This document shows positions 46,313-60,270 of a DNA stretch of 64,000 nt, piece by piece (the stretch's first letter is position 1; each line of letters opens with the position of its first letter). A model generated the notes under the pieces. It saw nothing but the letters and a program-made list of their open reading frames with translations, made no database searches and was not told the DNA's origin. Source of the stretch: Candidatus Lustribacter sp. GTDB taxonomy: Bacteria; Vulcanimicrobiota; Vulcanimicrobiia; Vulcanimicrobiales; Vulcanimicrobiaceae. The stretch is taken from NCBI GenBank assembly GCA_965277805.1, contig OZ255842.1:2816001-2880000 (forward strand), in the 5' to 3' direction. Made by a program: the position numbers and the translations under genes.

Positions 46313-47157
46313 GCGGTAACGGGCGCGTCGGCGACGACAGGGATCGACATCTCGCCGACTTTCTCGATCGCGATGCGCACCGTGTCGCCGGGAACGATCG
46401 GGCCCACGCCCGACATCGTGCCGCTCGCGATGATGTCGCCGGGCTGCAGCGTCGTCACCGACGAGCAGAGCACGACGGCTTCGGAGATGCCGACGACCAT
46501 ATCGTTCACCGGCGCTTCTTGTTTGAGCTTGCCGTTGACCCACAGCCGTAACACGATGTCGTCGGTCGCGCCGACTTCATCGGCGGTGGTGATCCATGGT
46601 CCGACGGGACAGAACGTATCGAACGACTTGCGCATCACGCGCTCTTCTTTGCCGCGCATCGTGACGTCGATCAGACACGCGTAACCGAAGATATACTCGC
46701 GCGCGTTTTCGAGCGCGATCTTGTGGCCCGACTTGCCGATGATGATCGCGAGTTCGCATTCGTGATGAAAGTTGCGACCGGGACGATCGGGGATCGCGAT
46801 CGGTTCGGCGGGCCCGCTCAACGCGCCGTTGGACTTCATGAAGAAGCCTTCGCTGCCGGGGACGCTCGGATCGCCGCCCATTTCGGCCGTATGCGCGCGG
46901 AAGTTATTCGGCAGCGCCAGCAGCTTATGCGGCCACGGAATCGGCGTTTCCAGCGTCACGCCGGACAGCGGCAAACCGACTGAGAGTGCGAGGACGCGCT
47001 CGATACCGGGCACTAATTCGTCGAATGCCGCGATCGTTGTGATCATGCCCATCGGCGGCCATTCGGCCGGATCGACACCGCAAGCATCGCTGACGTCGTG
47101 GATCCGATCGCCGATCACGACACCGATGCGGCCACCGTCAAAGCGCGCGATTTTCAT
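46309..47157 (-). CDS. Fumarylacetoacetate hydrolase family protein
   Basis: FFMK, HHECELAIIIGK, DVT.R, KSFDTFCPVGP, LQPGDIIASGT. Confidence 0.9.
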   Translation of the reverse strand: MKIARFDGGRIGVVIGDRIHDVSDACGVDPAEWPPMGMITTIAAFDELVPGIERVLALSVGLPLSGVTLETPIPWPHKLLALPNNFRAHTAEMGGDPSVPGSEGFFMKSNGALSGPAEPIAIPDRPGRNFHHECELAIIIGKSGHKIALENAREYIFGYACLIDVTMRGKEERVMRKSFDTFCPVGPWITTADEVGATDDIVLRLWVNGKLKQEAPVNDMVVGISEAVVLCSSVTTLQPGDIIASGTMSGVGPIVPGDTVRIAIEKVGEMSIPVVADAPVTA

Positions 47158-47235
47158 TCATCGCGCCTACGACGGCGGCGTCACGCATCCTCGCATAACG
47201 GGGGATGCTGAAAGAACAACAATAATATTCCATCC

Positions 47236-48015
47236 GTGCAGACTTCCGGCCGAAACGATCTCCGGCGCCTCGTCGGCAAGACGGCGCTCATCACCGGTAC
47301 CGCAGGCGGGCAAGGCCGCGCGGCCGCCATACTGTTTTCCGCACATGGCGCAACGGTCGTCGGCTGCGATCTCAACGTCGAAGGCGCACTCGAGACCGAG
47401 CGCATGGTGCGCGATGCCGGCGGCACGATGTATTCACAGCAACCGGTCGATATGAGCGACCGGACGCAAGTCGAGGCGTGGATCGCATGGGCCGCGCAAA
47501 CCTGCGACGGTTTCGACATCCTTTACAACAACGCGTCGGCTCCGAAGATGAATCCGTTTGCGAAGCTCACTCCGGATGAGTGGAACTTCACGCTGCGCAA
47601 CGAGCTCGACATCGTCTACCACGCCTGTCAGGTCGCGTGGCCCTATCTGCTCGCGCGCCGCGGCAACATCATCAACACGGCCTCGGCGATGGCGCTCGTG
47701 ACGCGCGGCGAAGGTTATAGCGCGCACGTCGCCGCGAAGGCCGGCGTCATCGCTCTTACTCGGCAGCTCGCCTATGAGGGCGGCCCGCACGGCGTTCGAG
47801 TGAACGCTCTCTCGCCAGGGCTGGTCGAAACGCCGATCACTATGCGTTGGCTCCACGACCCCGTCAAACGGCGAGAGCGCGAGAAGTGGTATCCGATCGG
47901 ACGCCTCGGCAAGCCCGAAGATGTTGCTTATGCGGCGCTCTACCTCGCTTCCGACGAAGCCTCGTGGGTCACCGGCTCAAACATCGTCATCGACGGCGGC
48001 ACCAGCACTATTTAG
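47236..48015 (+). CDS. SDR family oxidoreductase
   Basis: TGTAGGQG, NNAS, H...K in place of YxxxK, VRVNALSPG. Confidence 0.9.
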   Translation: MQTSGRNDLRRLVGKTALITGTAGGQGRAAAILFSAHGATVVGCDLNVEGALETERMVRDAGGTMYSQQPVDMSDRTQVEAWIAWAAQTCDGFDILYNNASAPKMNPFAKLTPDEWNFTLRNELDIVYHACQVAWPYLLARRGNIINTASAMALVTRGEGYSAHVAAKAGVIALTRQLAYEGGPHGVRVNALSPGLVETPITMRWLHDPVKRREREKWYPIGRLGKPEDVAYAALYLASDEASWVTGSNIVIDGGTSTI

Positions 48016-48035
48016 GAACCGTTCTCCGAAGCGGT

Positions 48036-48159
48036 ATGGGTCGCCGCCTCCTAGGCGTTATCAACATAGAGGGCTAGCCGCTCGTTTCCTTAGGCGGTTG
48101 TCGAATGCGCTAAGTCTCCTCGCCCTGTAACTTTAATGGCGACCCATTCGAGGGAGGGA
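48036..48159 (+). ncRNA. Candidate structured 5' leader of amt
   Basis: 10-bp perfect closing stem ATGGGTCGCC/GGCGACCCAT with nested stems, directly before the RBS. Confidence 0.45.
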
Positions 48160-48166
48160 TAGTTTT

Positions 48167-49600
48167 TTGTTGACGTTATTGGGCGACGTAACGCAGATCG
48201 CTGCTGCGACACCGCCGCCGACCCCCGCACCGACATTGATCCCGGATCCACCGTGGCTCAATGCGGGCGACACTTCATGGCAACTCACGGCCGGCACGTT
48301 CGTCGGCCTTCAGAGCATTCCGGGCCTGGCAATTCTCTACGCCGGTCTGGTCAAGAAAAAGTGGGCGCTCAACTCGGCCGTGATGTGCTTCTATGCCTTC
48401 TCGATCGTGTTGATCACCTGGTCGCTTTGGGGCTACAACAGCTCCTTCGGCACACAGTGGTTGACGCTGGCCGGTAACGGCTTTTTAGGCTTCCCGTCGC
48501 CCGCCGTCGGCGCGGCGCAAGAGATCGGTCAAGCGGTAATTCCCGCGGCCGCAGCCGCGTTGCCGCCGCTGCGTTTTGCCGGCTCCGCGATGATCTACTT
48601 CCAGTTCGTGTTCGCCGCGATCACGCCGCTGCTGATCGCGGGTGCGGTGCTCGGCCGCATGAACTTCAAAGCGTGGATGATCTTCGTTCCGATTTGGAGC
48701 ACGATCGTCTACTCGGTCGGCGCGTTTAGCCTCTGGGGCGGCGGCTGGCTCTCGCAACTTGGTGCCGCTGACTACTCAGGTGGTTACGTCATCCATTTGG
48801 CGGCTGGTATTTCCGGTTTCGTTACGGCCGCAATGGTCGGTCCCCGACTGCTCGCCGACCGCAAGGACTTCGAGCCGAACAACTTGATCATCGCTCTCGC
48901 CGGTGCCGGTATTCTCTGGCTCGGTTGGAACGGGTTCAACGGCGGTGACCCGTACTTCGCCAACCACGACGCGGCCGCAGCCGTACTGAACACCAACATC
49001 ACGACGGCGGTATCGCTGCTCGTGTGGCTGATCCTCGATATGTTCGCGACCGGTAAGGTCAACGCGGTATCGATGATCAACGGTATGATCGTCGGCCTCG
49101 TCGCAATCACGCCGGCCGCCGGTTTTGTGAACGGTTTCGGCGCGATGGGCATCGGCCTCGTCGCCGGTATCATCGTCTGGTTCTCGCTCAACAAACTCAA
49201 CAACACCGCACTGCTGCAGCGAGTCGACGATACGTTCGGCGTACTGCATACGCACGGTGTCGCCGGTCTCATCGGCGGTTTGATGGTCGGCGTGGTTGCC
49301 GATCCGAACATGATCGAGTACTACAGCGCTCCCGGTACTCCGAATCCGAAGTGGGATCCCACGTCCGCTCCGGCCTTCTCGATCGAAGGCCTGCTGGCTC
49401 ACGGAAACCCGCACCAGTTGATCTTGCAAGCCGAAGCTGCGGCGTTCATCATCATCTGGAACATCATCGCGACGTTTGTCATCCTCAAGATCATTTCGTT
49501 CTTCATCCCGCTTCGTGCGAGCGACGGCGATGTCGAAGGCGGCGATCTTGCGATCCACGGTATGGATCCGATCCCGGGATACACGCAAACGCCCGCCTAA
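48167..49600 (+). CDS. amt: Ammonium transporter
   Basis: GDTSWQL, FQFVFAAIT, DYSGGYVIH, LWLGWNGFNGG, DD..GV.HTHG (twin His). Confidence 0.95.
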   Translation: MLTLLGDVTQIAAATPPPTPAPTLIPDPPWLNAGDTSWQLTAGTFVGLQSIPGLAILYAGLVKKKWALNSAVMCFYAFSIVLITWSLWGYNSSFGTQWLTLAGNGFLGFPSPAVGAAQEIGQAVIPAAAAALPPLRFAGSAMIYFQFVFAAITPLLIAGAVLGRMNFKAWMIFVPIWSTIVYSVGAFSLWGGGWLSQLGAADYSGGYVIHLAAGISGFVTAAMVGPRLLADRKDFEPNNLIIALAGAGILWLGWNGFNGGDPYFANHDAAAAVLNTNITTAVSLLVWLILDMFATGKVNAVSMINGMIVGLVAITPAAGFVNGFGAMGIGLVAGIIVWFSLNKLNNTALLQRVDDTFGVLHTHGVAGLIGGLMVGVVADPNMIEYYSAPGTPNPKWDPTSAPAFSIEGLLAHGNPHQLILQAEAAAFIIIWNIIATFVILKIISFFIPLRASDGDVEGGDLAIHGMDPIPGYTQTPA

Positions 49601-49620
49601 CAAGAGCTGCCTCCAACAGC

Positions 49621-49661
49621 AGAGCCGCCGGATCTTCCGGCGGCTCTTTTTTTTCTTTTTT
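49621..49661 (+). terminator. Intrinsic terminator after amt
   Basis: 12-bp stem AGAGCCGCCGGA/TCCGGCGGCTCT followed by a long T run. Confidence 0.9.
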
Positions 49662-50804
49662 TTAAACGGAGACGCTGAAGAAGCGGTTGAGGTAGCCGTT
49701 CGTGACGTTGGCGTTGTTGATCGTTGCGATCGAAATCTGCTGCTGGATGCGCAGCGAGTTCAGCTCACTCGAGACCGACGGCTCGTTGGTGTCGCCGATG
49801 TCGGAAGCCGAATTCGTCAGGTTGTTCGACGCGATGTTGTTGTTGGCAAACGCGTTCTGCAGCGAGTTCGTCTGCGCGCCGAGCTGTGCCTGACCGGCGC
49901 CGAGCTTCGAGATCGCGTTCTGAATCTGGCCGAGCGAGTTCGTCGCGTTCTGCGGCGTCGAGAAATCGATGTTCGTGATGCCGAGGCCCGTCGTCGTGGC
50001 GTTCGGAATCGAGACTTGCGTCTGCTGGCCCTGGGTCGCGCCGCTCTGGACGCCGATCGTCGGATTGATCGAACCGGCCGCGGCAGCTTGCGTCTGCACC
50101 GTGGCGCCCGTGCCGGTGTCGGCGGTCGTGAAGTTGCCGAACGTCACTTGCGTACCGTTGACCGTGGTGGTCGAGCCGGCCGCGAACGATCCGACGTTCG
50201 TGACTTGCTGCGTCGTCGAATCGGTGAACGTCACGTTGGCGACGGCACCCGAACCCGTGTTCGCGATGGTCACGCCGATCGTACCGCTCGTCGTGGCGGC
50301 CGACGCGGTTGCCGTGGTGACGACGTTGCCGCCGCCGGCGAGAATATCGTCGTTGGTCGTGGTCGCCGATGCGGAGGTCGACGGCGTCGAGCCGGAGTTC
50401 TGCCCGGTGAGCAGCGCGGTGCCGTTGAAGTTCACCGTGCTCGCGTCGCCGTTGATCTGCTGCAGCAGCGCATTCGCCTGGTCCTGAAGGGCCGCGTTGT
50501 CGCTGGGCGAGTTGAACCCGTTGCCGGCCTCGATGGCCAGGTTCTGCAATTGGCCCAGGGCGTTCTGAATGCCGCTGGTCGCGCCTTGCGCGACGTTGAT
50601 CGCGTCGCTGGCCTGACTGATGTTTTGGTTGGCGGTATCGTCGCCTTGCGCTTGGGACTCGAGGGCGTTGTAGATCGCCAAGCCGGACGGGTCGACGGCC
50701 GCGCTCGTTAGCCGGTTTCCGCTCGAAGCTTGATTGGATGCCAACGTCAACTGTTGCTGGTAGTAGGCCAGGGAGTTGAGCGCCGGCCCAGTGCTGATCG
50801 ACAT
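49662..50804 (-). CDS. Flagellin-family protein (divergent, orphan)
   Basis: SSGNRLTSAAVDPSGLAI, NVAQGA, FNG..LL, VQSGA, QLGA..N.L, SDI.DT; GGAGG RBS. Confidence 0.85.
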   Translation of the reverse strand: MSISTGPALNSLAYYQQQLTLASNQASSGNRLTSAAVDPSGLAIYNALESQAQGDDTANQNISQASDAINVAQGATSGIQNALGQLQNLAIEAGNGFNSPSDNAALQDQANALLQQINGDASTVNFNGTALLTGQNSGSTPSTSASATTTNDDILAGGGNVVTTATASAATTSGTIGVTIANTGSGAVANVTFTDSTTQQVTNVGSFAAGSTTTVNGTQVTFGNFTTADTGTGATVQTQAAAAGSINPTIGVQSGATQGQQTQVSIPNATTTGLGITNIDFSTPQNATNSLGQIQNAISKLGAGQAQLGAQTNSLQNAFANNNIASNNLTNSASDIGDTNEPSVSSELNSLRIQQQISIATINNANVTNGYLNRFFSVSV

Positions 50805-50867
50805 GGGGCCCCTCCGTTACTCTCCTACTGTAGCGTATCGAGCGCTCGAGCGGCTACCCCCGGACGC

Positions 50868-51650
50868 TCAACCTTGCGTAATAGTGAGCCCCGGCAAATC
50901 AAGGCTGGCACACAATTCGGCATGGAGGAGCCCGTTGGATCCGGCGATCGACCCCGCGGCCAGGTCGAGGGGCGACCCGTCGATCGCACTAACCCGGCCG
51001 CCCGCCTCTTCGATCAGGAGCGCGCCGGCCGCCACATCCCACGGCTTGAGGTCCCATTCCCAGAAGGCATCGAAGCGGCCGGCGGCCACCATGGCCAGGT
51101 CGAGCGCCGCCGAACCATCCCGGCGTACACCCTGCACCAGGCGCGACATCGCCGCAAAATACCGCCCGTTGCGGTCGTACTGGGCCGGGTTGAAGCCCGT
51201 GCAGATCAGCGCCGACCGCAGCGATGGGGTCGCCGAAACCCGGATCGGCTTCCCGTTGAGGGTCGCCCCGCCACCCCGCCGGGCGGCAAACCGCATCCCC
51301 AAGAGGGGCGCTTCGATCGCCGCCGCTTCGAGCACCCCGCCTCGCTCGTAGGCGATCGAGACGCAGAACATCGGGTAGCGGTGCGCATAATTTGTGGTGC
51401 CGTCGAGGGGGTCGACGATGAACCGCTCGTCACTCGTCCCGGCGTAAACGCCGCCCTCTTCACCGAGAATGGCGGCGTCCGGAAAGGCGGTCCGGACCGC
51501 CGCCACGATCGCAGCTTCACTGGCCCGATCCGCTTCGGTCACGATATCGCGGGGGTTCTTCTCCACCACCTCGTGGACATCGTCGAAGCGCTCGCGCAAC
51601 AGCTCAGCTGCGTGATGGGCGAGGCCGGTGACGAAATCGAGCGGGTCCAC
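50868..51650 (-). CDS. suhB: Inositol monophosphatase family (SuhB)
   Basis: VTEAD, ILGEE, DPLDGTTNY, GSAALDL, LKPWDVAAG. Confidence 0.92.
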   Translation of the reverse strand: MDPLDFVTGLAHHAAELLRERFDDVHEVVEKNPRDIVTEADRASEAAIVAAVRTAFPDAAILGEEGGVYAGTSDERFIVDPLDGTTNYAHRYPMFCVSIAYERGGVLEAAAIEAPLLGMRFAARRGGGATLNGKPIRVSATPSLRSALICTGFNPAQYDRNGRYFAAMSRLVQGVRRDGSAALDLAMVAAGRFDAFWEWDLKPWDVAAGALLIEEAGGRVSAIDGSPLDLAAGSIAGSNGLLHAELCASLDLPGLTITQG

Positions 51651-51678
51651 ACTTCTCCTATTCGGAACACGTCGGCTG

Positions 51679-52149
51679 ATGTTTCGAAGAGCGTATCGGA
51701 CCCGGCTCGATCGCATCCTCGCCGCGGTCGAGATTCCCGCGATCGGCCTGTGGGTCGGAGCACTCTGCGGCTTCGCGTTCATTTCCGCACCGGCCGCGTT
51801 CCGGATCGTCAGCGACATCACGCAGTTCGCAGACCTCACCGCGACCAACCTGCGCGTCCTCGGGTACGTGGGCGCGATCTGCGGCGGGATCGCGATCGTC
51901 GTCGCGCTCGTGCGCTCGTTCGACGCGTCCGATCGCACCAACGACATCGTTCGGGCCGCGCTGATTTTGGTCGCGCTGCTGCTGGTGGCGTACGAAAGCT
52001 TCGCGGTCGTGCCGGCGCTCGCCGCGATGACCGACGTGCACTCGGCCGATTTTGCCGAACTGCACCAGCGCTCGACGCAGGTCTACGGCGGCGTCGTCGT
52101 GTTGGCGCTGGCGGCGCTCGTCCTGGCGGCCGTCCGGGGAGACGCGTAG
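51679..52149 (+). CDS. DUF4149/TMEM205-like membrane protein
   Basis: GLWVG.....FI.APAAF and F..LH..S pattern, 4 TMs. Confidence 0.75.
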   Translation: MFRRAYRTRLDRILAAVEIPAIGLWVGALCGFAFISAPAAFRIVSDITQFADLTATNLRVLGYVGAICGGIAIVVALVRSFDASDRTNDIVRAALILVALLLVAYESFAVVPALAAMTDVHSADFAELHQRSTQVYGGVVVLALAALVLAAVRGDA

Positions 52150-52158
52150 CGATCCGCC

Positions 52159-53454
52159 ATGGCGTTCCACGATGGGTTTCTCTCCGAGATGATCGGACGC
52201 ACGGCCGTGGTCGACACCGCCGGCCGGCGCCTTGCCGTCGGCCGCATCATGGATTTTGTGGTCGAACACCCCGACGATACGTTCCCCAAGATCGATGCGC
52301 TGGTCATCAAGAGCAGCAGCGGCAAGCATCTCGCGCCGATCGGCAGCATCCTCGACTTCGAATCCGACGGCAAGCTGATCTTGAGCGAGGTTCCCTCGCG
52401 CGTCGCGCCGCCCGACGATGAGGCGCTCTATCTCGTTGAGGATCTCTTCGACAAACAGATCGTCGACGTCGACGGCCGCAAGGTCGTGCGCATCAACGAT
52501 ATCGAGGTCGCGCGCACCGGCGGCGCGCTGCGCGTCGTCGCGGCCGACATCGGTTTCGGCGGCATCGTGCGGCGTCTGGGCGGCGGAAGTTTCGGCCGCA
52601 ATCTCGGCGACCGCCTACCGCGCACGCTGATCGCCTGGGATAACGTCGCGCCCCTGCACGACCTCAACCCTACGCAGATCCAGCTCTCGGTTTCCGATTC
52701 GCGCCTCGCGCGCTTGCACCCGAGCGACCTGGCGGAGATCATCGGCGATCTCTCGGCCCGCGATGCCGCGCGCGTCGTCGCCTCACTCGATGACGAAACG
52801 GCTGCCGACGCGCTCGAGCATCTCGATGCCGAGACCCAGCGCTCGATCATCGACGATCTCGGTCACGTCCGCGCCGCCGACATCATCGAGGAGATGGATT
52901 CGGACGACGCCGCCGATTTGCTCGGCGATCTTCCGCCCGAACAGCAAGAGCAGCTGCTGCGCGAGATGGACGCCGAAACGGCCGAAGATCTGCGCGAGCT
53001 CGTCGCCTACGACGAAGGCACCGCGGGCGGTTTGATGACGACCGACTACATGTGGATTTACCCGCACCGCACCGTCGCCGCCACGATTGCCAAGATTCGC
53101 GAACTCGCGCCCGAGACCGAATTCATCTATTATCTCTACGTGACCGACGAAACGGAGAAGCTGCTCGGCGTGCTTTCGCTGCGCACGCTCCTGCTGTCCG
53201 CGCCCGACGATCTGATCCACACCGTCATGACCGGCGACGTGGTCGGCGTCCATCCCGACGTCAAGGCGACCGAAGTCGCGTCGACGATCGCTCGCTACGA
53301 TCTGCTCGCGTGTCCCGTGCTCGACGAAGAGGGCAAGATGCTCGGCATCGTGACCGTCGACGACGCGATCGACGCGATCATTCCCGAGCGGCTCAAGAAA
53401 CAGCTTCCGCGCTTCACCAAGCGCCATCGGCACGAGCGCATCGAGCACGTCTAG
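52159..53454 (+). CDS. Soluble MgtE-cytoplasmic-domain protein (PRC-like barrels, MgtE_N, CBS pair)
   Basis: DKQIVD.DGRKVVRIND, LHPSDLAEII, MDSDDAADLL, TAGGLMTT, GIVTVDD; no TM domain. Confidence 0.88.
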   Translation: MAFHDGFLSEMIGRTAVVDTAGRRLAVGRIMDFVVEHPDDTFPKIDALVIKSSSGKHLAPIGSILDFESDGKLILSEVPSRVAPPDDEALYLVEDLFDKQIVDVDGRKVVRINDIEVARTGGALRVVAADIGFGGIVRRLGGGSFGRNLGDRLPRTLIAWDNVAPLHDLNPTQIQLSVSDSRLARLHPSDLAEIIGDLSARDAARVVASLDDETAADALEHLDAETQRSIIDDLGHVRAADIIEEMDSDDAADLLGDLPPEQQEQLLREMDAETAEDLRELVAYDEGTAGGLMTTDYMWIYPHRTVAATIAKIRELAPETEFIYYLYVTDETEKLLGVLSLRTLLLSAPDDLIHTVMTGDVVGVHPDVKATEVASTIARYDLLACPVLDEEGKMLGIVTVDDAIDAIIPERLKKQLPRFTKRHRHERIEHV

Positions 53455-53457
53455 CGC

Positions 53458-54729
53458 ATGAACATACGCCGCTGGTGGCGCCGGGCGCTGATCATTTTTG
53501 CTGTGCTCGGGCCCGGCTTCGTCACGGCCTCCGCCGGCAACGACGTCGGCGGCATCGCCACCTACTCCGCCGCGGGCGCAAAGTTCGGCTACATCGTGCT
53601 GTGGACGCTGGTGCCGCTCACGGTCTCGCTGATCGTCGTCCAAGAGATGGCCGGCCGGATGGGCGCGGTGACGGGTCAGGGCTTAGCCGGATTGATTCGC
53701 GAGAACTTCGGCATCCGGCTGACGTTCATCGCGATGGCCGCGCTCTTCTTCATCAACACCGGGATCACGGCGACAGAATTTGCCGGTATCGCTGCGTGGG
53801 CGCAGATCCTGCACCTCTCGCGCTACATCGTCGTCCCGTTGGCCACGGTCGTCGTTTTTTTGCTCGTGCTGCGCTTGAGCAACAAGATCGTCGAGCGCGT
53901 CTTCGTCGTGTTCTCGCTGATCTACCTGAGTTACGTCGTTTCCGGCATCGACGCGAAGCCGGATTGGGGCGCCGTCATCCACGGCACGCTCGTCCCGACG
54001 TTCTCGCCGGAAACGGGTTTTCTCGTAACCGTCGTGGGTTTGATCGGCACGACGATCTCGCCGTACATGCAGTTCTTCTTGCAATCGGCCGTCGTCGACA
54101 AAGGCTCCGGGCCGCGCGACCTCTTCAACGTCCGCGCCGACATCTTCGTCGGCTCGATCCTCGGCATCGCGATCGCCGGGTTCATGATCATCGCGAACGC
54201 CGCGACCATCCATCACGCCTCGCTGATCAACCACAAGCCGCCGCTCGATATCGACACCGCACAAGCGGTCGATTTCGCCCGCGCGCTGGAGCCGCTGGCC
54301 GGCAAATTCGCCGCCGACCTATTCGCCTTCGGCATCCTCAACGCAGGCCTGTTCACGGCCACGGTGCTGCCGCTCGCGACGGCGTTCATCATCTGCGAAG
54401 CGTTCGGGCTCGAAGCCGCAGTCGACCGGCGCTGGCACGAAGCGCCGTTCTTCTACGGCCTCTTCGCGAGCGGCATCGTCCTCGGCGCGGGGCTCGTGCT
54501 GCTGCTGCCGGCCGACAAGCTCTTTCAGTTCACGTTCTACGCGCAGGTGATGCAAGGCGCGGTGCTGCCGCTGGAGCTCGTCCTGATGCTGATCATCATC
54601 AACCGCAAGCGGGTCATGGGCAAATACGTGAACACGCGGACCGTGAACGTCATCGCCTGGGCCACCGCGATCGTCATCGGCGGCCTCGCGATCGTCTACG
54701 TGGCCCAGTCGGTCTTCGGCCTAGGCTAG
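53458..54729 (+). CDS. Nramp-related divalent cation transporter (probable Mg2+-type NRMT)
   Basis: TM1 GNDVGGIATYS (vs DPGN) and TM6 GTTISPY (vs GATIMPH). Confidence 0.85.
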   Translation: MNIRRWWRRALIIFAVLGPGFVTASAGNDVGGIATYSAAGAKFGYIVLWTLVPLTVSLIVVQEMAGRMGAVTGQGLAGLIRENFGIRLTFIAMAALFFINTGITATEFAGIAAWAQILHLSRYIVVPLATVVVFLLVLRLSNKIVERVFVVFSLIYLSYVVSGIDAKPDWGAVIHGTLVPTFSPETGFLVTVVGLIGTTISPYMQFFLQSAVVDKGSGPRDLFNVRADIFVGSILGIAIAGFMIIANAATIHHASLINHKPPLDIDTAQAVDFARALEPLAGKFAADLFAFGILNAGLFTATVLPLATAFIICEAFGLEAAVDRRWHEAPFFYGLFASGIVLGAGLVLLLPADKLFQFTFYAQVMQGAVLPLELVLMLIIINRKRVMGKYVNTRTVNVIAWATAIVIGGLAIVYVAQSVFGLG

Positions 54730-55058
54730 GCGCCGAGCCGCATGCCCACGGCTCCGATATAAGCGGCCAGCAAGATCATCGCGCTCGAGAGGATCGTCAG
54801 GACGAGGACGTTCTGACGCGAGTCGGGCTGGCGGCTCATGACGTTGGCCCCCATGTATCCGGCCCATCCCACGACAGCCAGCACGTAGTGCGGCGTGGGC
54901 GCGCGGTGGCCCAAAACGAGCAGTACGAGCCCGAGCAAGATCTGGAGCGAGAGAATGTAGAGCGTGATCCGCCGGCCCAATCTGAACCACACAAACAGGG
55001 CTGCGCACGCGGCAACGAGGATACCTAGCCACAAGTGCACGACGAGAACGCTGTCCAT
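54726..55058 (-). CDS. Small four-TM membrane protein
   Basis: 110 aa, hydrophobic, His in helices 1 and 3. Confidence 0.7.
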   Translation of the reverse strand: MDSVLVVHLWLGILVAACAALFVWFRLGRRITLYILSLQILLGLVLLVLGHRAPTPHYVLAVVGWAGYMGANVMSRQPDSRQNVLVLTILSSAMILLAAYIGAVGMRLGA

Positions 55059-55091
55059 ACCCGGCGGGTTCGCCGCGATGGGGTTGATGCT

Positions 55092-56273
55092 TTGCTGAGC
55101 TACGCGGAAGCGCTGGCTCGCATCGCGGCGACCGGTGGCGGCGCGCAAGCGCTGGCCTCCCAACTGTCAACGGCCATCGACGCCGGGGTCCTAGTCGAAG
55201 ACGCCGAGTGGAAGCACCTGGGGCTGGCCGCCGGCAAGGATCAGGCCGTTCCGCCTTCGGTACGCAACCTGCTGCCCGATACGTTCGAGGGTGAATCCGA
55301 AGACGGCGTGGCGCTCCAGCCGCCGGCCGACGCGCGCAGCCGGGCCTTTCCGATTCGCGCCGGCGGTGCGCGCTTGGGCTGGCTCTCGATCTTCCCGCGC
55401 TCCGGAACCGTGGCCGAGCGGCGGCCGCTGGTGCGGCTGACGACGGCCCAAATCGCAATCGAGCTTTCGCGCGACGCCGGCGGCGGGCGCGGACGGCGGC
55501 GTTCGTTCTGGGACCGCCTGCTCTCGCGCGCCTACGACGATCCGCTCGAGGCCCGCGAGGACGCGCATGCCCGCGGCATCACGCTGGCGCCCGGCTACGT
55601 TGCGGTGGCGGTCGAGGGCGAAGGCCTCGACGAAAACGTCGCCGCGCAAAAGAACGCCGAACTGCGGCGCGTCTGTCTCGACGTCCTCGGCACGCGCAAC
55701 GGCGAAGTCGTCGTCATCGAACGCGGCGGCGGCTTCTTCTTCCTCGTTCCGGCCGCGCTCGACATCGATGCATCGAACGCGCGCACGGCCGCGACGCTGA
55801 TCCCGCGCGGCATCTCGCGTGCCGGCATCGACGTGAACGTCGTGGGCGGGATCGGCCGGCATGCCGAGATGCTGCACGTTGCCCGTTCGGTCGACGAGGC
55901 CCGCGAAGCCACGACGATCGCGCGCCGCATGTTCGGCGGCGGCAAGGTCATGCCGTATGAAGACCTCGGCATCTATCCGCTGCTGCACCGCGGCGGCGCG
56001 CAACGCGAGGAATGGAAGGCGTTCGCCGAACGCGTCCTCGAGCCGTTACGCGCGTATGACGAGAAACATCAAACCGAATTGGTGCGGACGCTTCGCCTCT
56101 TCTTCGACGTGGGACAAAATATCAAGGTGGCTGCAGCCCAACTGAACGTGCACCGGCACACCGTTTTCTATCGCCTGCGTCAGATCGGTGAGATCGGACG
56201 CCTGGACCTCGACAGCCCACACGATCAACTCACGTTGCGTGCGGCCATCGCCATCGATGCTCTCGGCAGTTAA
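55092..56273 (+). CDS. PucR/CdaR-family transcriptional regulator
   Basis: GGIG..S..EA, YEDLGIYPLL, L.PL..YD..H.TEL..TL, AA.QL.VHRHTV.YRL. Confidence 0.9.
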   Translation: MLSYAEALARIAATGGGAQALASQLSTAIDAGVLVEDAEWKHLGLAAGKDQAVPPSVRNLLPDTFEGESEDGVALQPPADARSRAFPIRAGGARLGWLSIFPRSGTVAERRPLVRLTTAQIAIELSRDAGGGRGRRRSFWDRLLSRAYDDPLEAREDAHARGITLAPGYVAVAVEGEGLDENVAAQKNAELRRVCLDVLGTRNGEVVVIERGGGFFFLVPAALDIDASNARTAATLIPRGISRAGIDVNVVGGIGRHAEMLHVARSVDEAREATTIARRMFGGGKVMPYEDLGIYPLLHRGGAQREEWKAFAERVLEPLRAYDEKHQTELVRTLRLFFDVGQNIKVAAAQLNVHRHTVFYRLRQIGEIGRLDLDSPHDQLTLRAAIAIDALGS

Positions 56274-57570
56274 GGACGCGGGCAACGTGCGCCGCGACAT
56301 CATAAAAACCGCGCGCGACCGCGGGGTGAAGTGGATTCGCCTCGCGTTCGTCGATATCGCGGGCATCGAGAAGAACATCACGATCCCGGTCAGCGAACTC
56401 GAACGTGCGATGAACGGCCGCGTGACGTTCGACGGCGGCTCGATCGACGGGTTCATCCGCGAGGAAGAACTCGACATGTTGCTGCGGCCGGATCCGGCCA
56501 CGTTTGCGATCTTGCCTTGGACGCTCGATACCGGCGCACCCGAAGCGCGCATGCTGTGCGACATCCTGATGCCCGACGGCACGCCGTTCGAGGGCTGCCC
56601 GCGCAGCACGCTCAAGCGCGTGATCGACGACGCCGAAGACGTGATGCGCGACGTCAAGACGGCGCTCGAAGTCGAGTTCTACCTCTTCGAGCGCGACGCC
56701 AACGGCATCCCGACGACGCGCACGGTCGACGCCGGTTCGTACTTCGACTACTCGCCGTCCGATCGCGGCGACGACGCGCGCACCGCGATGGCGGCCGCGC
56801 TCGAAACGATGGGCATCGGGGTGTTGAGCGCGCACCACGAACACGGCGCCGGACAGCACGAACTCGACCTCTCCGCGGGCGGCGTGCTCGGCACGGCCGA
56901 TCGTCTCGTCACCGTGCGCAGCGTGGTCAAACAGATCGCAGCCCGGCACAACATTCACGCGACGTTCATGCCCAAACCGATCGAGTCGTCGGCCGGCAGC
57001 GGCTTGCACGTCTACGTGGGCCTGGGCGAAATCGACGAGGTCGTGCGCTTGCACGCGATCGCGGGCTTGCTCGACCATGCCGCGGGCTTCACCGCGGTCT
57101 GCAACCCGACGGTGAATTCGTACAAGCGTTTGATGCCGGCCTGGGACGCGCCGGTGTACACGGTGTGGTCGCAACGCAGCGCCAACGCGCTCGTGCGCGT
57201 GCCGCCGCCGATCGACGGCCCGCCGCTGCTCGAGATTCGTAGCCCCGACTCCGCGTGCAATCCTTATCTGGCGCTGGCGGTGCTCATCGAAGCGGCCGCC
57301 GACGGCATCCGCTCGCGCACGCTGCCCGGCGATCCGTTCACCGGCTCGACCTACGAACTGCGCGAAAAGTATCGCAAGGATCACGGCATTCGCACGCTGC
57401 CGCATTCGCTTGGCGAAGCGATCGACGCGCTCGACAAGGATCTCGTGATGCGCGGCGCGCTCGGCGATCATATCTATCATGCTTTCCGCGACGCGAAGCT
57501 CGCCGAGTTCGAACGCTATCGCCTTGCGGTTCACCCGTGGGAGCACCAGGAGTATCTTCGTAAATTCTAA
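56257..57570 (+). CDS. Glutamine synthetase (GSI-alpha) homolog with altered active site
   Basis: Colinear with Bacillus-type GlnA (EVEFYLF, HHE..GQHE, TFMPKP, NSYKRL, NPYLA) but several catalytic residues substituted. Confidence 0.88.
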   Translation: MLSAVKDAGNVRRDIIKTARDRGVKWIRLAFVDIAGIEKNITIPVSELERAMNGRVTFDGGSIDGFIREEELDMLLRPDPATFAILPWTLDTGAPEARMLCDILMPDGTPFEGCPRSTLKRVIDDAEDVMRDVKTALEVEFYLFERDANGIPTTRTVDAGSYFDYSPSDRGDDARTAMAAALETMGIGVLSAHHEHGAGQHELDLSAGGVLGTADRLVTVRSVVKQIAARHNIHATFMPKPIESSAGSGLHVYVGLGEIDEVVRLHAIAGLLDHAAGFTAVCNPTVNSYKRLMPAWDAPVYTVWSQRSANALVRVPPPIDGPPLLEIRSPDSACNPYLALAVLIEAAADGIRSRTLPGDPFTGSTYELREKYRKDHGIRTLPHSLGEAIDALDKDLVMRGALGDHIYHAFRDAKLAEFERYRLAVHPWEHQEYLRKF

Positions 57571-57589
57571 CGCCGGCGCCGCGGCGCTA

Positions 57590-58369
57590 TTGCGCGAGCG
57601 GGCCGGCGGTGACATCGCCTGCGCGATCGTGCTCGGCAGCGGTTTGGCGCGCGCCCTGCGCGGCGTCCGCACGCTCAGCCCGATCGGTTACGATGCGCTC
57701 GGCGGGCTGCCGGCGCCCAGCGCGCTCGGACACGTCGGCGAAGCGCTGACCGGGACGCTCGGTGGAAAGCGCGTCGTCACATTTTGCGGCCGCTACCATC
57801 TCTACGAAGGCCGCACGACCGATGAGGTCGTGAGCTTGGTGGCACTGGCCATTGCCGCCGGCGCGCGCACCGTGATCCTCACCAACGCCGCCGGCGGACT
57901 CAACCGGACTTTCGAAGCGGGCGACGTGATGCTGTTGCGCGATCACCTCAACCTCACCGGCATGAACCCGCTCGCGGCCAAGACATTACCGCCCGGCGTC
58001 ACCGAGCGTTTCGTCAACATGAGCGACGCCTATGCGGAAGACTTACGCGTCGTCGCGAAGGTCGCGTGCGAGCGAGCGGGCCTGCGCGCGCACGAAGGCG
58101 TGTACGGCGGATTGCTCGGGCCGTCGTATGAAACGCCGGCCGAAGTCGCGATGCTGCGGCTGCTCGGCGCCGATGCCGTCGGCATGTCGACGGTGCTCGA
58201 AACGATCTACGCCCGTTCGTACGGCGTGCGCGTGCTCGGCATCAGCCTGATCACCAACGTTCACGACGGCGCGCCGACGACGTCGGAAGAGGTCATGTTC
58301 GAAGCCGATCGCGCGTCGGCCAAGTTTGCGACGATGCTCGCGACGGTCGTGTCCGAACTCGCGGCGTAA
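57590..58369 (+). CDS. punA: Purine-nucleoside phosphorylase (start uncertain)
   Basis: IVLGSG, GR.H.YEG, LTNAAGG, GPSYETPAE, VGMST, SLITN. Confidence 0.9.
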   Translation: MRERAGGDIACAIVLGSGLARALRGVRTLSPIGYDALGGLPAPSALGHVGEALTGTLGGKRVVTFCGRYHLYEGRTTDEVVSLVALAIAAGARTVILTNAAGGLNRTFEAGDVMLLRDHLNLTGMNPLAAKTLPPGVTERFVNMSDAYAEDLRVVAKVACERAGLRAHEGVYGGLLGPSYETPAEVAMLRLLGADAVGMSTVLETIYARSYGVRVLGISLITNVHDGAPTTSEEVMFEADRASAKFATMLATVVSELAA

Positions 58370-58375
58370 CGAGAC

Positions 58376-59218
58376 ATGCTGCGATCGGTTTTTCTGGCCA
58401 GCGCGGCCAGTGCGCTGGCCACGCGGCCGGCGAGTTTGGACGGCCTCGAACGCCGCGCCGGCGGCCGGCTCGGGGTCTTCGCGATCGACACCGGCAGCGG
58501 ACGCACGTTCGAACACCGCGCGCACGAACGCTTTCCGATGTGCAGCACGTTCAAACTGCTCGCCGTCGGCGCGGTGCTGGCGCGCGTCGATCAGCACAAC
58601 GAAGATCTGGGCCGGCGGGTCGGGTTCACGCAGAGCGATATGCTCGACAACTCACCCGTGACGCAGACCAACCTGAACCTCGCCTCGATGACGATCGGCC
58701 AGTTGTGTGAAGCGGCGATCGTGCAGAGCGACAATACCGCGGCCAACCTGCTGCTGCATTCGCTGCTCGGGCCGGCCGGCGTGACGAAATTTGCGCGCAA
58801 GCTCGGCGATCAGGTAACGCGCCTCGACCGCGACGAACCCGACGTCAACAGTGCGATACCGGGCGACCCGCGCGACACCACCTCGCCCGCGGCCATGGCC
58901 GGCGATGCCCGCGCGCTCGTGCTCGGCACGGTGCTGTCGCCGCGCTTGCGCGCGCGGCTCGTCGCATGGATGCGCGCGTGCGAAACCGGCCGCGACGCGC
59001 TGCGCGCCGGCCTGCCGGCGACCTGGATCACCGGCGATAAGACCGGTTCGGGCGCGCACGGAACGACCAACGACGTGGCCGTGATCTGGCCGCCGCAGCG
59101 CGCACCGATCGTGGTCGCCGCGTACTCCACCGGTTTGCGCGGTTCGAGTGCCGAGCACTATGCGGTGCTAGCCTCGGTCGGCCGTATCGTGTTCCAGGAA
59201 TATCGCCTGGCCCACTGA
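58376..59218 (+). CDS. bla: Class A beta-lactamase
   Basis: STFK (SxxK), SDN, DRDEPDVN (E166/N170), DKTG. Confidence 0.93.
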   Translation: MLRSVFLASAASALATRPASLDGLERRAGGRLGVFAIDTGSGRTFEHRAHERFPMCSTFKLLAVGAVLARVDQHNEDLGRRVGFTQSDMLDNSPVTQTNLNLASMTIGQLCEAAIVQSDNTAANLLLHSLLGPAGVTKFARKLGDQVTRLDRDEPDVNSAIPGDPRDTTSPAAMAGDARALVLGTVLSPRLRARLVAWMRACETGRDALRAGLPATWITGDKTGSGAHGTTNDVAVIWPPQRAPIVVAAYSTGLRGSSAEHYAVLASVGRIVFQEYRLAH

Positions 59219-59250
59219 AGCCCCGGCCGAGCCGACCTGGAAGGGACTAG

Positions 59251-60270
59251 ATGAAATTCATAGCCGTCCTTCTCGCCCTATTGCTGCTACCGGTCTCGGG
59301 CGTCGCGCAAACGCCGGCACCGCCGGACAACGTGAAGCTGCTGATCAATCCGGCGCTGATCTTCGATCTGCCGCTGATGGTGGCGATCGATAAAGGCCTC
59401 TTCGCGCAGCAGCACATCAACGTTCAAGTCGTCGTGCACAGCGGCTCGAGCCAGACGATCATTCCCGAACTCGTGCGCGGCGACGTCGACATCGCGGGCA
59501 TCTCCGCAAACCCCGGCTTCTTCAACCAATTCGCGCAAGGCTTCGATGCGAAGATCATCGCGTCGTCGAGCTCGAGCAAGAAGGGCTGGAATCCGATCGT
59601 GTGGCTTGTCGTGCGCCAAGCCGATTGGGACGCGAAGACGATCCGGCGTCCGGACGATTTGCGGGGCAAGCATTTCGACGGCGCGACGCCCGGCGGCGAA
59701 GGCTGGTATCTATCGCGCCACGTGCTGACCGAGGCCGCGCTCACGCCCGCCGATCTTACGTTCAGCGAACGCTTCACCACCGCCGGCGATTGGCTCTCGT
59801 CGCTGCGCAACATCAACAACGTGCAAGCGGTTTACGAACCGACGGTCACGCAGTTCGAACAGCAGAAAATCGCCCATCGCTGGCTCTCGATCATGGACGT
59901 CGATCCGAGCTATCAAGAGGCCTATTTGGGCGCGTCGGCGCGCACGCTGAAGGCGCGGCCCGACGTGATCCGGCGCTTTCTGATCGCTTACGTCAAGGCG
60001 TCGAAGATCATCGCCGACGGCAACGGCAAGTGGACGCCCGACGTGCTGGCGATCTTCGCGAAGTACTCGGGACTCGCGCCCGATATCATCGCGGCGATTC
60101 CGACGCCGCCGTACACCGGCGAATACGGTACCATCCACACCGAGTCGATCCAGATCGTCCAGCGCTTCTGGCACACGTTCGGTTTAGTGCAGGCCGAAAA
60201 TTCGATCGACACGCTCGCCGATCCGAGCTTCATCACGGCCGCCCAAAAAGCTGCCGGCGTCCGGCATTAG
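59251..60270 (+). CDS. ABC transporter substrate-binding protein (NMT1/SsuA-like), orphan
   Basis: Signal peptide; P..VA.DKG.F, G.VD, DL.GK, PD...RFL.AY. Confidence 0.8.
   Translation: MKFIAVLLALLLLPVSGVAQTPAPPDNVKLLINPALIFDLPLMVAIDKGLFAQQHINVQVVVHSGSSQTIIPELVRGDVDIAGISANPGFFNQFAQGFDAKIIASSSSSKKGWNPIVWLVVRQADWDAKTIRRPDDLRGKHFDGATPGGEGWYLSRHVLTEAALTPADLTFSERFTTAGDWLSSLRNINNVQAVYEPTVTQFEQQKIAHRWLSIMDVDPSYQEAYLGASARTLKARPDVIRRFLIAYVKASKIIADGNGKWTPDVLAIFAKYSGLAPDIIAAIPTPPYTGEYGTIHTESIQIVQRFWHTFGLVQAENSIDTLADPSFITAAQKAAGVRH

Follow-up and report, generated by a model that had tools for sequence, protein, structure and literature searches.

We analyzed a 64-kb window (G000:C1:2816001-2880000) of a one-contig, 5.53-Mb Eremiobacterota genome and focused on a gene pair formed by a PucR-family regulator and a paralogue of glutamine synthetase (GS) of the GSI-alpha type, hereafter called EreGS. 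Among named proteins, the closest matches were from Candidatus Lustribacter. All coordinates without a genome prefix are in the numbering of that window, the whole stretch of DNA analyzed. The regulator, EreGS and a purine nucleoside phosphorylase are three co-directional genes, laid out as follows.

55092..56273, + strand: PucR-family regulator, with a GAF-like N-terminal domain, a GGDEF-like domain and a C-terminal HTH_30 domain
56257..57570, + strand: EreGS, GSI-alpha-type GS paralogue of 437 aa, with Gln-synt_N and Gln-synt_C domains (Pfam and alignments)
56257..56273, + strand: 17-nt overlap between the 3' end of the regulator gene and the start of EreGS (EreGS ATG at 56257, regulator stop codon ending at 56273)
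57479..58369, + strand: purine nucleoside phosphorylase (NF006054, 267.8 bits for a cut-off of 218), with an uncertain start (TTG 57524 or 57590 possible)

The regulator probably starts at TTG 55092; the longest open reading frame (ORF) runs from GTG 55035, and the orthologues open with MTxxEL at the position equivalent to 55092. Matches to HTH_30 (PF13556; 1.1e-17, 64 bits) and GGDEF_2 (PF17853; 1.1e-08, 35.7 bits) were both over the cut-off. An AlphaFold2 model built from 21 orthologues reached a mean predicted local distance difference test score (pLDDT) of 88.5. Its closest folds in the PDB were a C-terminal fragment of Mycobacterium tuberculosis Rv2242 (9f80) and Bifidobacterium BAD_0249 (3onq), and its N-terminal part matched the fold of the CodY GAF domain. 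PucR-family regulators commonly govern the catabolism of nitrogen compounds, and those of the PucR/CdaR type are thought to bind small molecules.

A conserved, translationally coupled gene pair

A preliminary description of this DNA had noted the 17-nt overlap, which the coordinates above bear out, and had raised the question of whether the pairing is conserved. We compared the source genome with 40 relatives (41 Eremiobacteria genomes in all, falling into families f1, f2 and f3) and with 80 further species-level Eremiobacterota loci. Two of the genomes, G015 and G036, are unpublished, and the G015 row in the counts and the statements on G036 rest on them. A PucR-type regulator was found directly upstream of EreGS in 29 of 29 relatives' loci, and in 79 of the 80 further loci the regulator gene was immediately followed by EreGS, the sole miss ending at a contig edge. 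The pairing is thus conserved. No PucR relative was present within approximately 3 kb in any of 80 metagenome loci of the sister clade.

The start of EreGS and the stop of the regulator gene overlap in 19 of 21 loci, either by 17, 20 or 26 nt or by 4 nt (ATGA), and two loci have a gap of approximately 20 nt. In families f1 and f2, the ATG of EreGS lies inside conserved I-D-A codons of the regulator gene. No Shine-Dalgarno (SD)-like motif precedes the EreGS start in 15 of the 21 loci, including the source, and an AAGGAG motif precedes the ATG of a second, 476-aa GS described below in most of 23 loci. Throughout the class Eremiobacteria, the regulator and EreGS are encoded by a bicistron with coupled translation. 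A search of the main texts of the open-access literature returned nothing on a GS-PucR pairing in Eremiobacterota or on "glutamine synthetase-like" pseudoenzymes.

Active-site residues of EreGS

EreGS is approximately 45% identical to solved GSI-alpha enzymes over its full length (E of about 1e-116 with HMMER) and matches PF03951 (Gln-synt_N, 1.7e-23) and PF00120 (Gln-synt_C, 1.3e-91). It scores 385.3 bits on TIGR00653, the model of type I glutamate-ammonia ligases, under the equivalog cut-off of 429.15. Residues were compared using HMMER alignments to the GS of Bacillus subtilis (BsGS, 4s0r/7tfc) and of Methermicoccus (MsGS, 8oow). All the substitutions listed in the preliminary description were present in these alignments, as were the retained metal ligands and the C-terminal helix; the loop that it described as deleted is shortened.

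The motif VNGSGMH reads SAGSGLH in EreGS, with A246 at the position of the flap latch residue N264 of Salmonella typhimurium GS. AWDAP replaces GYEAP, which places D297 at the flap Glu, and SAN replaces NRS, which places A309 at the catalytic Arg. LLEIR stands in place of RVEVR, with L324 at the first Arg, the one that stacks on adenine and contacts the alpha-phosphate. H-C-N-L-S has become H-V-Y-V-G, with Y253 and G255 at the adenine-contacting N and S of BsGS, and the hairpin that follows is approximately 13 residues shorter than in canonical GS. The three adenine-contact positions, namely, Ser, the stacking Tyr and the stacking Arg, therefore read G255, A207 and L324. The main sites map to the window as follows.

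57145..57147, + strand: codon of D297, at the catalytic flap Glu position (BsGS E304), from the alignment
57181..57183, + strand: codon of A309, at the catalytic Arg position (BsGS R316 = MsGS R314), from the alignment
57010..57060, + strand: EreGS residues 252-268, with adenine contacts lost (Y253, G255) and hairpin shortened; includes the predicted regulator contacts 260, 262 and 265

Roles have been published for the corresponding residues. In the GS of Paenibacillus, the adenine ring is stacked by Tyr199 and Arg329 and bound at N1 by Ser247, Arg314 touches the phosphate, and BsGS Arg316 is described as "a key catalytic residue" (PMC9249791). For Helicobacter pylori GS, adenine is held by the counterparts of S273, F225 and R355, that of R339 binds both the beta-phosphate and the phosphorylated intermediate, and bonds link the flap Glu to N264 and D50' (PMC6076278). 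Arg321 is the named catalytic Arg of MtGS and is homologous to BsGS Arg316 (PMC10799026).

The remainder of the site is kept. EreGS retains the six metal ligands (E138, E140, E195, E202, H251 and E326), the glutamate/glutamine site (R291, G247 and E140) and the ammonium pocket (D59, which corresponds to Asp50', S62, Y162 and E195). Also retained are R314, R328, the C-terminal helices and R68, the counterpart of BsGS R62, whose side chain latches glutamine onto the flap once it is bound. From the missing residues, we infer that EreGS has lost catalysis. Residual catalysis may persist, above all in family f3, which has a Lys at position 309.

Residue conservation and phylogeny

An EreGS orthologue was found in 38 of the 41 genomes, the others being G009, G019 and G036. 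Identity to the source EreGS was 85 to 97% in the same genus, 59 to 64% in other genera of the family, 56 to 59% in the second family and 53 to 57% in the third. Cultured Vulcanimicrobium alpinum has an orthologue (P0057) with 74% identity. In two genomes of the same genus as the source, the orthologue is broken over two or three frames (G002:C4:588597-589908 and G003:C12:277944-279256); these assemblies have few contigs and low completeness, and in them assembly indels and real decay are indistinguishable.

Residue frequencies were determined in a 21-sequence orthologue alignment, in the 72 of the 80 further loci that cover the active-site positions and in 122 GSI-type representatives. Fourteen positions are invariant in the 21 orthologues, namely, D59, R68, E138, E140, Y162, E195, E202, G247, H251, R291, D297, R314, E326 and R328. 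The flap position is Asp in 21/21 orthologues and 72/72 loci, whereas it is Glu in 95 of the 122 representatives. Position 309 is Ala in 14 orthologues (families f1 and f2) and Lys in seven (f3), and Arg occupies it in 93 of the 122 representatives. Positions 207, 253, 255 and 324 vary widely within the clade. Since the amino-acid and metal residues are invariant and the nucleotide positions drift, the metal and amino-acid half of the active site is, judging from these alignments, strictly constrained, and the nucleotide half is released.

The substitutions are not due to chance, because A246, D297 and A309 are found together in 72/72 further loci and D297 is invariant in the 21 orthologues. 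The preliminary description had taken all of them as marks of degeneracy, but the Asn-to-Ala change at 246 is not diagnostic, because representatives that are canonical in other respects often have Ala, Pro or Ser at this position. Arg307 was considered as a relocated catalytic Arg and ruled out, as it is not invariant (R in 63, H in 4, A in 3, S in 1 and K in 1 of 72 loci).

The EreGS clade is monophyletic with a support of 1.0. One cluster in the sister group has a member named Gemmatimonadales, and three of four sister representatives (P0128, P0136 and P0148) also have no Arg at the 309 position, with Val, Lys and Thr, respectively; the flap Glu is retained in those three, and none is accompanied by a PucR gene. 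We also considered 2-oxoglutarate (2OG) as the ligand. The motif of the 2OG-activated archaeal GSI-alpha MtGS comprises Arg20', Arg88', Arg174/175 and Ser191, with no acid at Val94 (PMC10799026). In the MsGS alignment, EreGS retains R28 and R175 of this motif. Unlike MtGS-type enzymes, it has no equivalent of Arg88', where L90 is found, and it has an invariant acidic residue, E96, where E89 of MsGS blocks 2OG. Sensing of 2OG by EreGS is therefore disfavored.

These data also bear on whether EreGS might be a working, specialized GS isoenzyme, for instance, a high-affinity or stress-specific one, with the regulator as its transcriptional controller or protein inhibitor. Its unusual residues would then be an active-site variant that the enzyme tolerates. 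The six metal ligands, R291, R314, R328, D59 and Y162 are invariant, as would be expected of such an enzyme. The Asp still supplies a carboxylate to the flap and is also found in an Enterocloster bolteae protein named type I glutamate-ammonia ligase (P0130), and family f3 has Lys309. However, the catalytic Arg is missing in f1 and f2, with no invariant Arg two residues earlier to replace it, and the three adenine contacts drift freely. The absence of an SD motif and the translational coupling to a regulator gene would also be odd for a bulk enzyme. We regard an isoenzyme as possible, although we lean against it.

Model of the EreGS-regulator complex

We co-folded one GS monomer with the regulator using 21-row alignments that we built ourselves, in three runs and with three controls. 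The interaction prediction score from aligned errors (ipSAE) was 0.61 (0.59, 0.61 and 0.63 in the individual runs), versus 0.00 for the best control. In the calibration set, 58 of 80 solved complexes but just 2 of 110 mismatched pairs attained this mark, a scale that is only rough for alignments supplied by the user. The runs shared at least 92% of their contacts, and the pLDDT of the partner was at least 79.

On the EreGS side, the predicted interface comprises residues 260, 262 and 265 of the short hairpin, residues 355-359 (L-P-G-D-P, the start of the Tyr-loop) and residues 374-377. In the 21-sequence alignment, G358 is invariant, and P357 and P360 are at least 90% conserved. On the regulator side, it is formed by helix 223-239, the best-conserved stretch of the regulator outside the HTH domain. 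The segments concerned are encoded as follows.

57319..57387, + strand: EreGS residues 355-377, start of the Tyr-loop (L-P-G-D-P) and the next helix; predicted regulator contact
55758..55808, + strand: regulator residues 223-239 (numbered from 55092), helix D-A-x-N-A-R-T-A-A of the GGDEF-like domain; predicted GS contact

The Tyr-loop carries the adenylylated Tyr in GSI-beta enzymes, and we know of no solved GS-PucR complex. In MsGS, this loop corresponds to residues 363-371 and lies beside the loop of the catalytic Arg (PMC10799026). As a prediction, the co-fold supports the partnership that had been proposed in the preliminary description, in which the two proteins would bind directly, with the GGDEF-like domain docked on the Tyr-loop.

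A canonical GS elsewhere in the genome

The source genome has three PF00120 genes, of which EreGS scores highest on TIGR00653. EreGS is not the only GS, as had been anticipated. A second gene (G000:C1:1652309-1653754, minus strand) has a 482-aa ORF, which probably yields a protein of 476 aa from a conserved ATG, and shows the full canonical catalytic set, i.e., VNGSGMH, FEAP, DRGS, RVEVR, the hairpin and an aromatic residue at the stacking position. EreGS is 25 to 29% identical to the other GS, and we saw no support for the alternative raised in the preliminary description, a regulatory subunit of a true GS. The 476-aa GS is 74 to 80% identical across families, compared with 53 to 64% for EreGS, which is thus the faster evolving of the two, a further point against its being an isoenzyme. 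Conversely, the top TIGR00653 score in the genome (385 bits) is in line with an isoenzyme, and so is the fact that no GS gene other than EreGS was found in four genomes.

The 476-aa GS is 81% identical to a protein of Paludibaculum fermentans (Acidobacteriota) and scores only 247 bits on TIGR00653. It represents an unusually conserved cross-phylum type, for which the NCBI name is merely "glutamine synthetase family protein." True orthologues were found in 26 of the 41 genomes, G036 being the sole f3 genome with one. A third, GSI-beta-like type is present in 16 of the 41 genomes (10 of the 11 genomes of family f3, G022, G009 and four f2 genomes), and in f3 its gene is located 6 to 25 kb from EreGS.

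Approximately 60 to 110 nt upstream of the 476-aa GS gene, we observed a conserved element in five genera, TTTTACC-N8-AAAGGC followed by TTGTGCAA-like words. The version found in the source genus reads CGCCAAATGGCCCGAGGGTTCGGG...CTGGCAATTG. The element has no Rfam match. TTTTACC-N8-AAAGGC was considered as a regulon box and rejected. In five genomes, its exact copies were nearly unique to the promoter of the 476-aa GS gene and one-mismatch counts equaled those of a reversed-pattern control, with no link to the regulator.

P-II (GlnB/GlnK, PF00543) was not found in the source genome, whereas the identical search was positive in 13 of 14 control genomes. Across the 41 genomes, any match at all was obtained in eight, with strong matches only in G011, G021 and G024, and none in the other 33, including the source. 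Glutamate synthase (GOGAT) is present in the source genome. Its sole Amt gene lies at 48167-49600, some 5.5 kb before the pair and without an adjacent glnK, and is followed by a flagellin gene on the minus strand (49662-50804). In this setting, an EreGS without catalysis could be the subunit through which a master nitrogen regulator of the PucR family senses glutamine. Such an independently evolved, enzyme-derived signaling system would stand in for P-II and control the genes for canonical GS, for ammonium uptake and for related functions; we consider such a broad role rather unlikely.

Genes around the pair

The purine nucleoside phosphorylase does follow EreGS, as first described, but it is found downstream in just 4 of the 29 relatives' loci. 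As a neighbor it is specific to the genus and falls outside the conserved unit. In the window, it is directly followed by a gene of the class A beta-lactamase family at 58376-59218 (PF13354, 2e-44). In the mapped loci, no co-directional catabolic genes come after EreGS, which closes the unit. The genes found downstream of the pair in convergent orientation code for a pyridoxal phosphate (PLP) decarboxylase, an aldo-keto reductase, a GAF-histidine kinase and RidA.

Some of these neighbors are relevant to the idea that EreGS acts as a gamma-glutamyl-amine ligase of the PuuA, GmaS or GlnA3/4 kind and, controlled by a PucR-type regulator, initiates the breakdown of a nitrogen compound. Such control would be in keeping with the usual remit of this regulator family. 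A PLP decarboxylase gene is convergent to the pair in 8 of 16 mapped loci, and a class III aminotransferase gene is found upstream in three f3 loci. Nevertheless, EreGS scored far below the cut-offs of the corresponding models, with 249.6 versus 650 for GGputSyn (NF045547) and 274.5 versus 469.6 for gln_synth_III (TIGR03105). It keeps D59 (Asp50'), where GmaS has an Ala (PMC7948447), and no co-directional hydrolase, dehydrogenase or permease gene comes after it. Finally, such ligases need ATP, and the adenine pocket of EreGS is degenerate. We therefore find this activity improbable. Elsewhere in the source genome, a GmaS-type ligase is encoded in the locus G000:C1:202825-206823 (TIGR03105, 660.6 bits), between a flavin mononucleotide (FMN) glutamate-synthase-like gene and an ORF that was read, unscanned, as sarcosine-oxidase-like. 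This cluster is likely to represent an N-methylglutamate pathway for the use of methylamine.

Upstream, the conserved neighbors are a gene of the inositol-monophosphatase family and the two genes below, for which no membership of the regulatory unit is implied.

52159..53454, + strand: soluble MgtE_N + CBS protein (Pfam), conserved upstream neighbor
53458..54729, + strand: Nramp-family divalent-cation transporter (Pfam, 4.1e-83), conserved upstream neighbor

Members of the MgtE_N/CBS cluster are present in all 20 other loci compared, and their adjacency was established in the 16 loci mapped; members of the Nramp cluster are present in 16 of the 20. The MgtE_N + CBS protein has no MgtE membrane domain and is encoded directly before the Nramp transporter, an arrangement kept across the three families. 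One possible role for this protein is that of a Mg2+/nucleotide-sensing subunit in an Nramp-type transporter. In the source genome, a small hydrophobic ORF of approximately 110 aa with no Pfam match lies on the minus strand between the Nramp and regulator genes (54726-55058). It is conserved in the genus, and its start is 33 nt from the likely start of the regulator, which leaves hardly any space for a divergent promoter.

The order MgtE_N/CBS, Nramp, PucR and GS, which is kept across three families, and the invariance of all the metal ligands raise the possibility that the pair senses Mn2+ or Mg2+ through the two-metal site of GS and controls the adjacent Nramp and MgtE_N/CBS genes. However, the connection to these genes is one of synteny, and the minus-strand ORF separates Nramp from the regulator in the source genus. 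Moreover, the glutamate, ammonium and glutamine-latch residues are just as invariant, although a pure metal sensor would not need them. We deem metal sensing highly improbable.

DISCUSSION

We propose that EreGS is a clade-specific GSI-alpha paralogue kept as a glutamine sensor and co-regulator, the partner of a PucR-family regulator, and we give this proposal a probability of roughly 0.5. Glutamine, or the balance of glutamate and glutamine, in the amino-acid site would fix the Asp flap, the D50' loop and the neighboring Tyr-loop. The GGDEF-like domain of the regulator would dock on that Tyr-loop, and docking would alter the activity of the HTH domain on promoters of nitrogen metabolism. The logic would be that of feedback-inhibited GS acting on GlnR and TnrA, with an unrelated regulator family and with a GS copy dedicated to sensing, and bulk glutamine synthesis would be left to the second GS. 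The proposed role as a sensor and that as an isoenzyme are not mutually exclusive.

GS is known as a transcriptional co-regulator in Firmicutes, where its partners are small MerR-type proteins. For the B. subtilis glnRA, GS-GlnR and GS-TnrA systems, GS has been proposed to be a glutamine sensor that controls a transcription factor by direct contact (PMC9249791, PMC4335299). As in glnRA, the EreGS locus has its regulator gene immediately before a GSI-alpha gene within a single operon, and the latch Arg (BsGS R62) is kept. The regulator is nevertheless of the PucR family, with GAF-like, GGDEF-like and HTH_30 domains, rather than a MerR-type protein with a C-terminal tail. In B. subtilis, this tail inserts into the active site of the feedback-inhibited GS, at its side pore, whereas the predicted contact on EreGS is the Tyr-loop. 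Another difference is that one enzyme does both jobs in Bacillus, whereas EreGS has neither the catalytic Arg nor the adenine contacts, and a separate canonical GS is present.

To our knowledge, no PucR/CdaR regulator has an enzyme-derived protein partner. In domain architecture, fold and link to nitrogen, the regulator resembles other members of this group, such as B. subtilis PucR, PutR and AdeR, Corynebacterium glutamicum GabR (PMC7652997) and Rv2242 (9f80). EreGS itself is like canonical GSI-alpha enzymes (BsGS 4lni/4s0r, MsGS 8oow) in its two domains, metal site and C-terminal helices, and it differs from them by its flap Asp, the Ala in place of the catalytic Arg, lost or variable adenine contacts, a shorter hairpin and a score below the cut-off.

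Several observations weigh against a role of EreGS as a sensor. The preliminary description had suggested a non-catalytic GS as the ligand-binding partner of the regulator. The coupling of the two genes stands, as it is clade-wide and absent from the sister clade, whereas the loss of catalysis is read from missing residues. Like a working enzyme, EreGS keeps the metal ligands, the phosphate-binding residues R314 and R328 and the ammonium pocket, and family f3 combines Lys309 with an aromatic residue at 207 and, in most members, Arg324. The predicted interface was modeled with a single GS subunit of the dodecamer, and the hairpin that forms part of it is long in families f2 and f3. EreGS is the sole GS gene found in 4 of the 38 genomes that have it, namely, G010 (93% complete), G015 (75%), G017 (96%) and G018 (72%), a count that weighs neither way because approximately three such misses are expected from incompleteness.

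The upstream DNA gave no further indication of how the regulator acts. No operator was found when inverted repeats were searched in 54700-55250 and 21 upstream regions were read by eye, and neither the regulon-box nor the upstream searches revealed target genes; both results also speak against the proposal. Counts of inverted half-sites and 8-mers in 79 de-replicated upstream regions showed no conserved palindrome, and the commonest 8-mers were G+C-rich words or derived from conserved N-terminal F-A-E codons. A scan of 54600-59400 for sigma-70-like promoters returned no sites, and Rfam gave nothing credible in 47000-59500 of the window or in three loci upstream of the other GS gene.

The Eremiobacterota class is abundant in peat and polar soils. 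In this class, a regulator family unrelated to the known partners of GS seems to have enlisted a GS copy that is dedicated to it and partly disabled, and the arrangement has been kept across the whole class. If our proposal is true, it would represent a second, independent invention of enzyme-based nitrogen sensing and a rare case of a bacterial metabolic pseudoenzyme acting as a receptor. It would also provide a handle on how nitrogen status is read in a phylum that is mostly without P-II.

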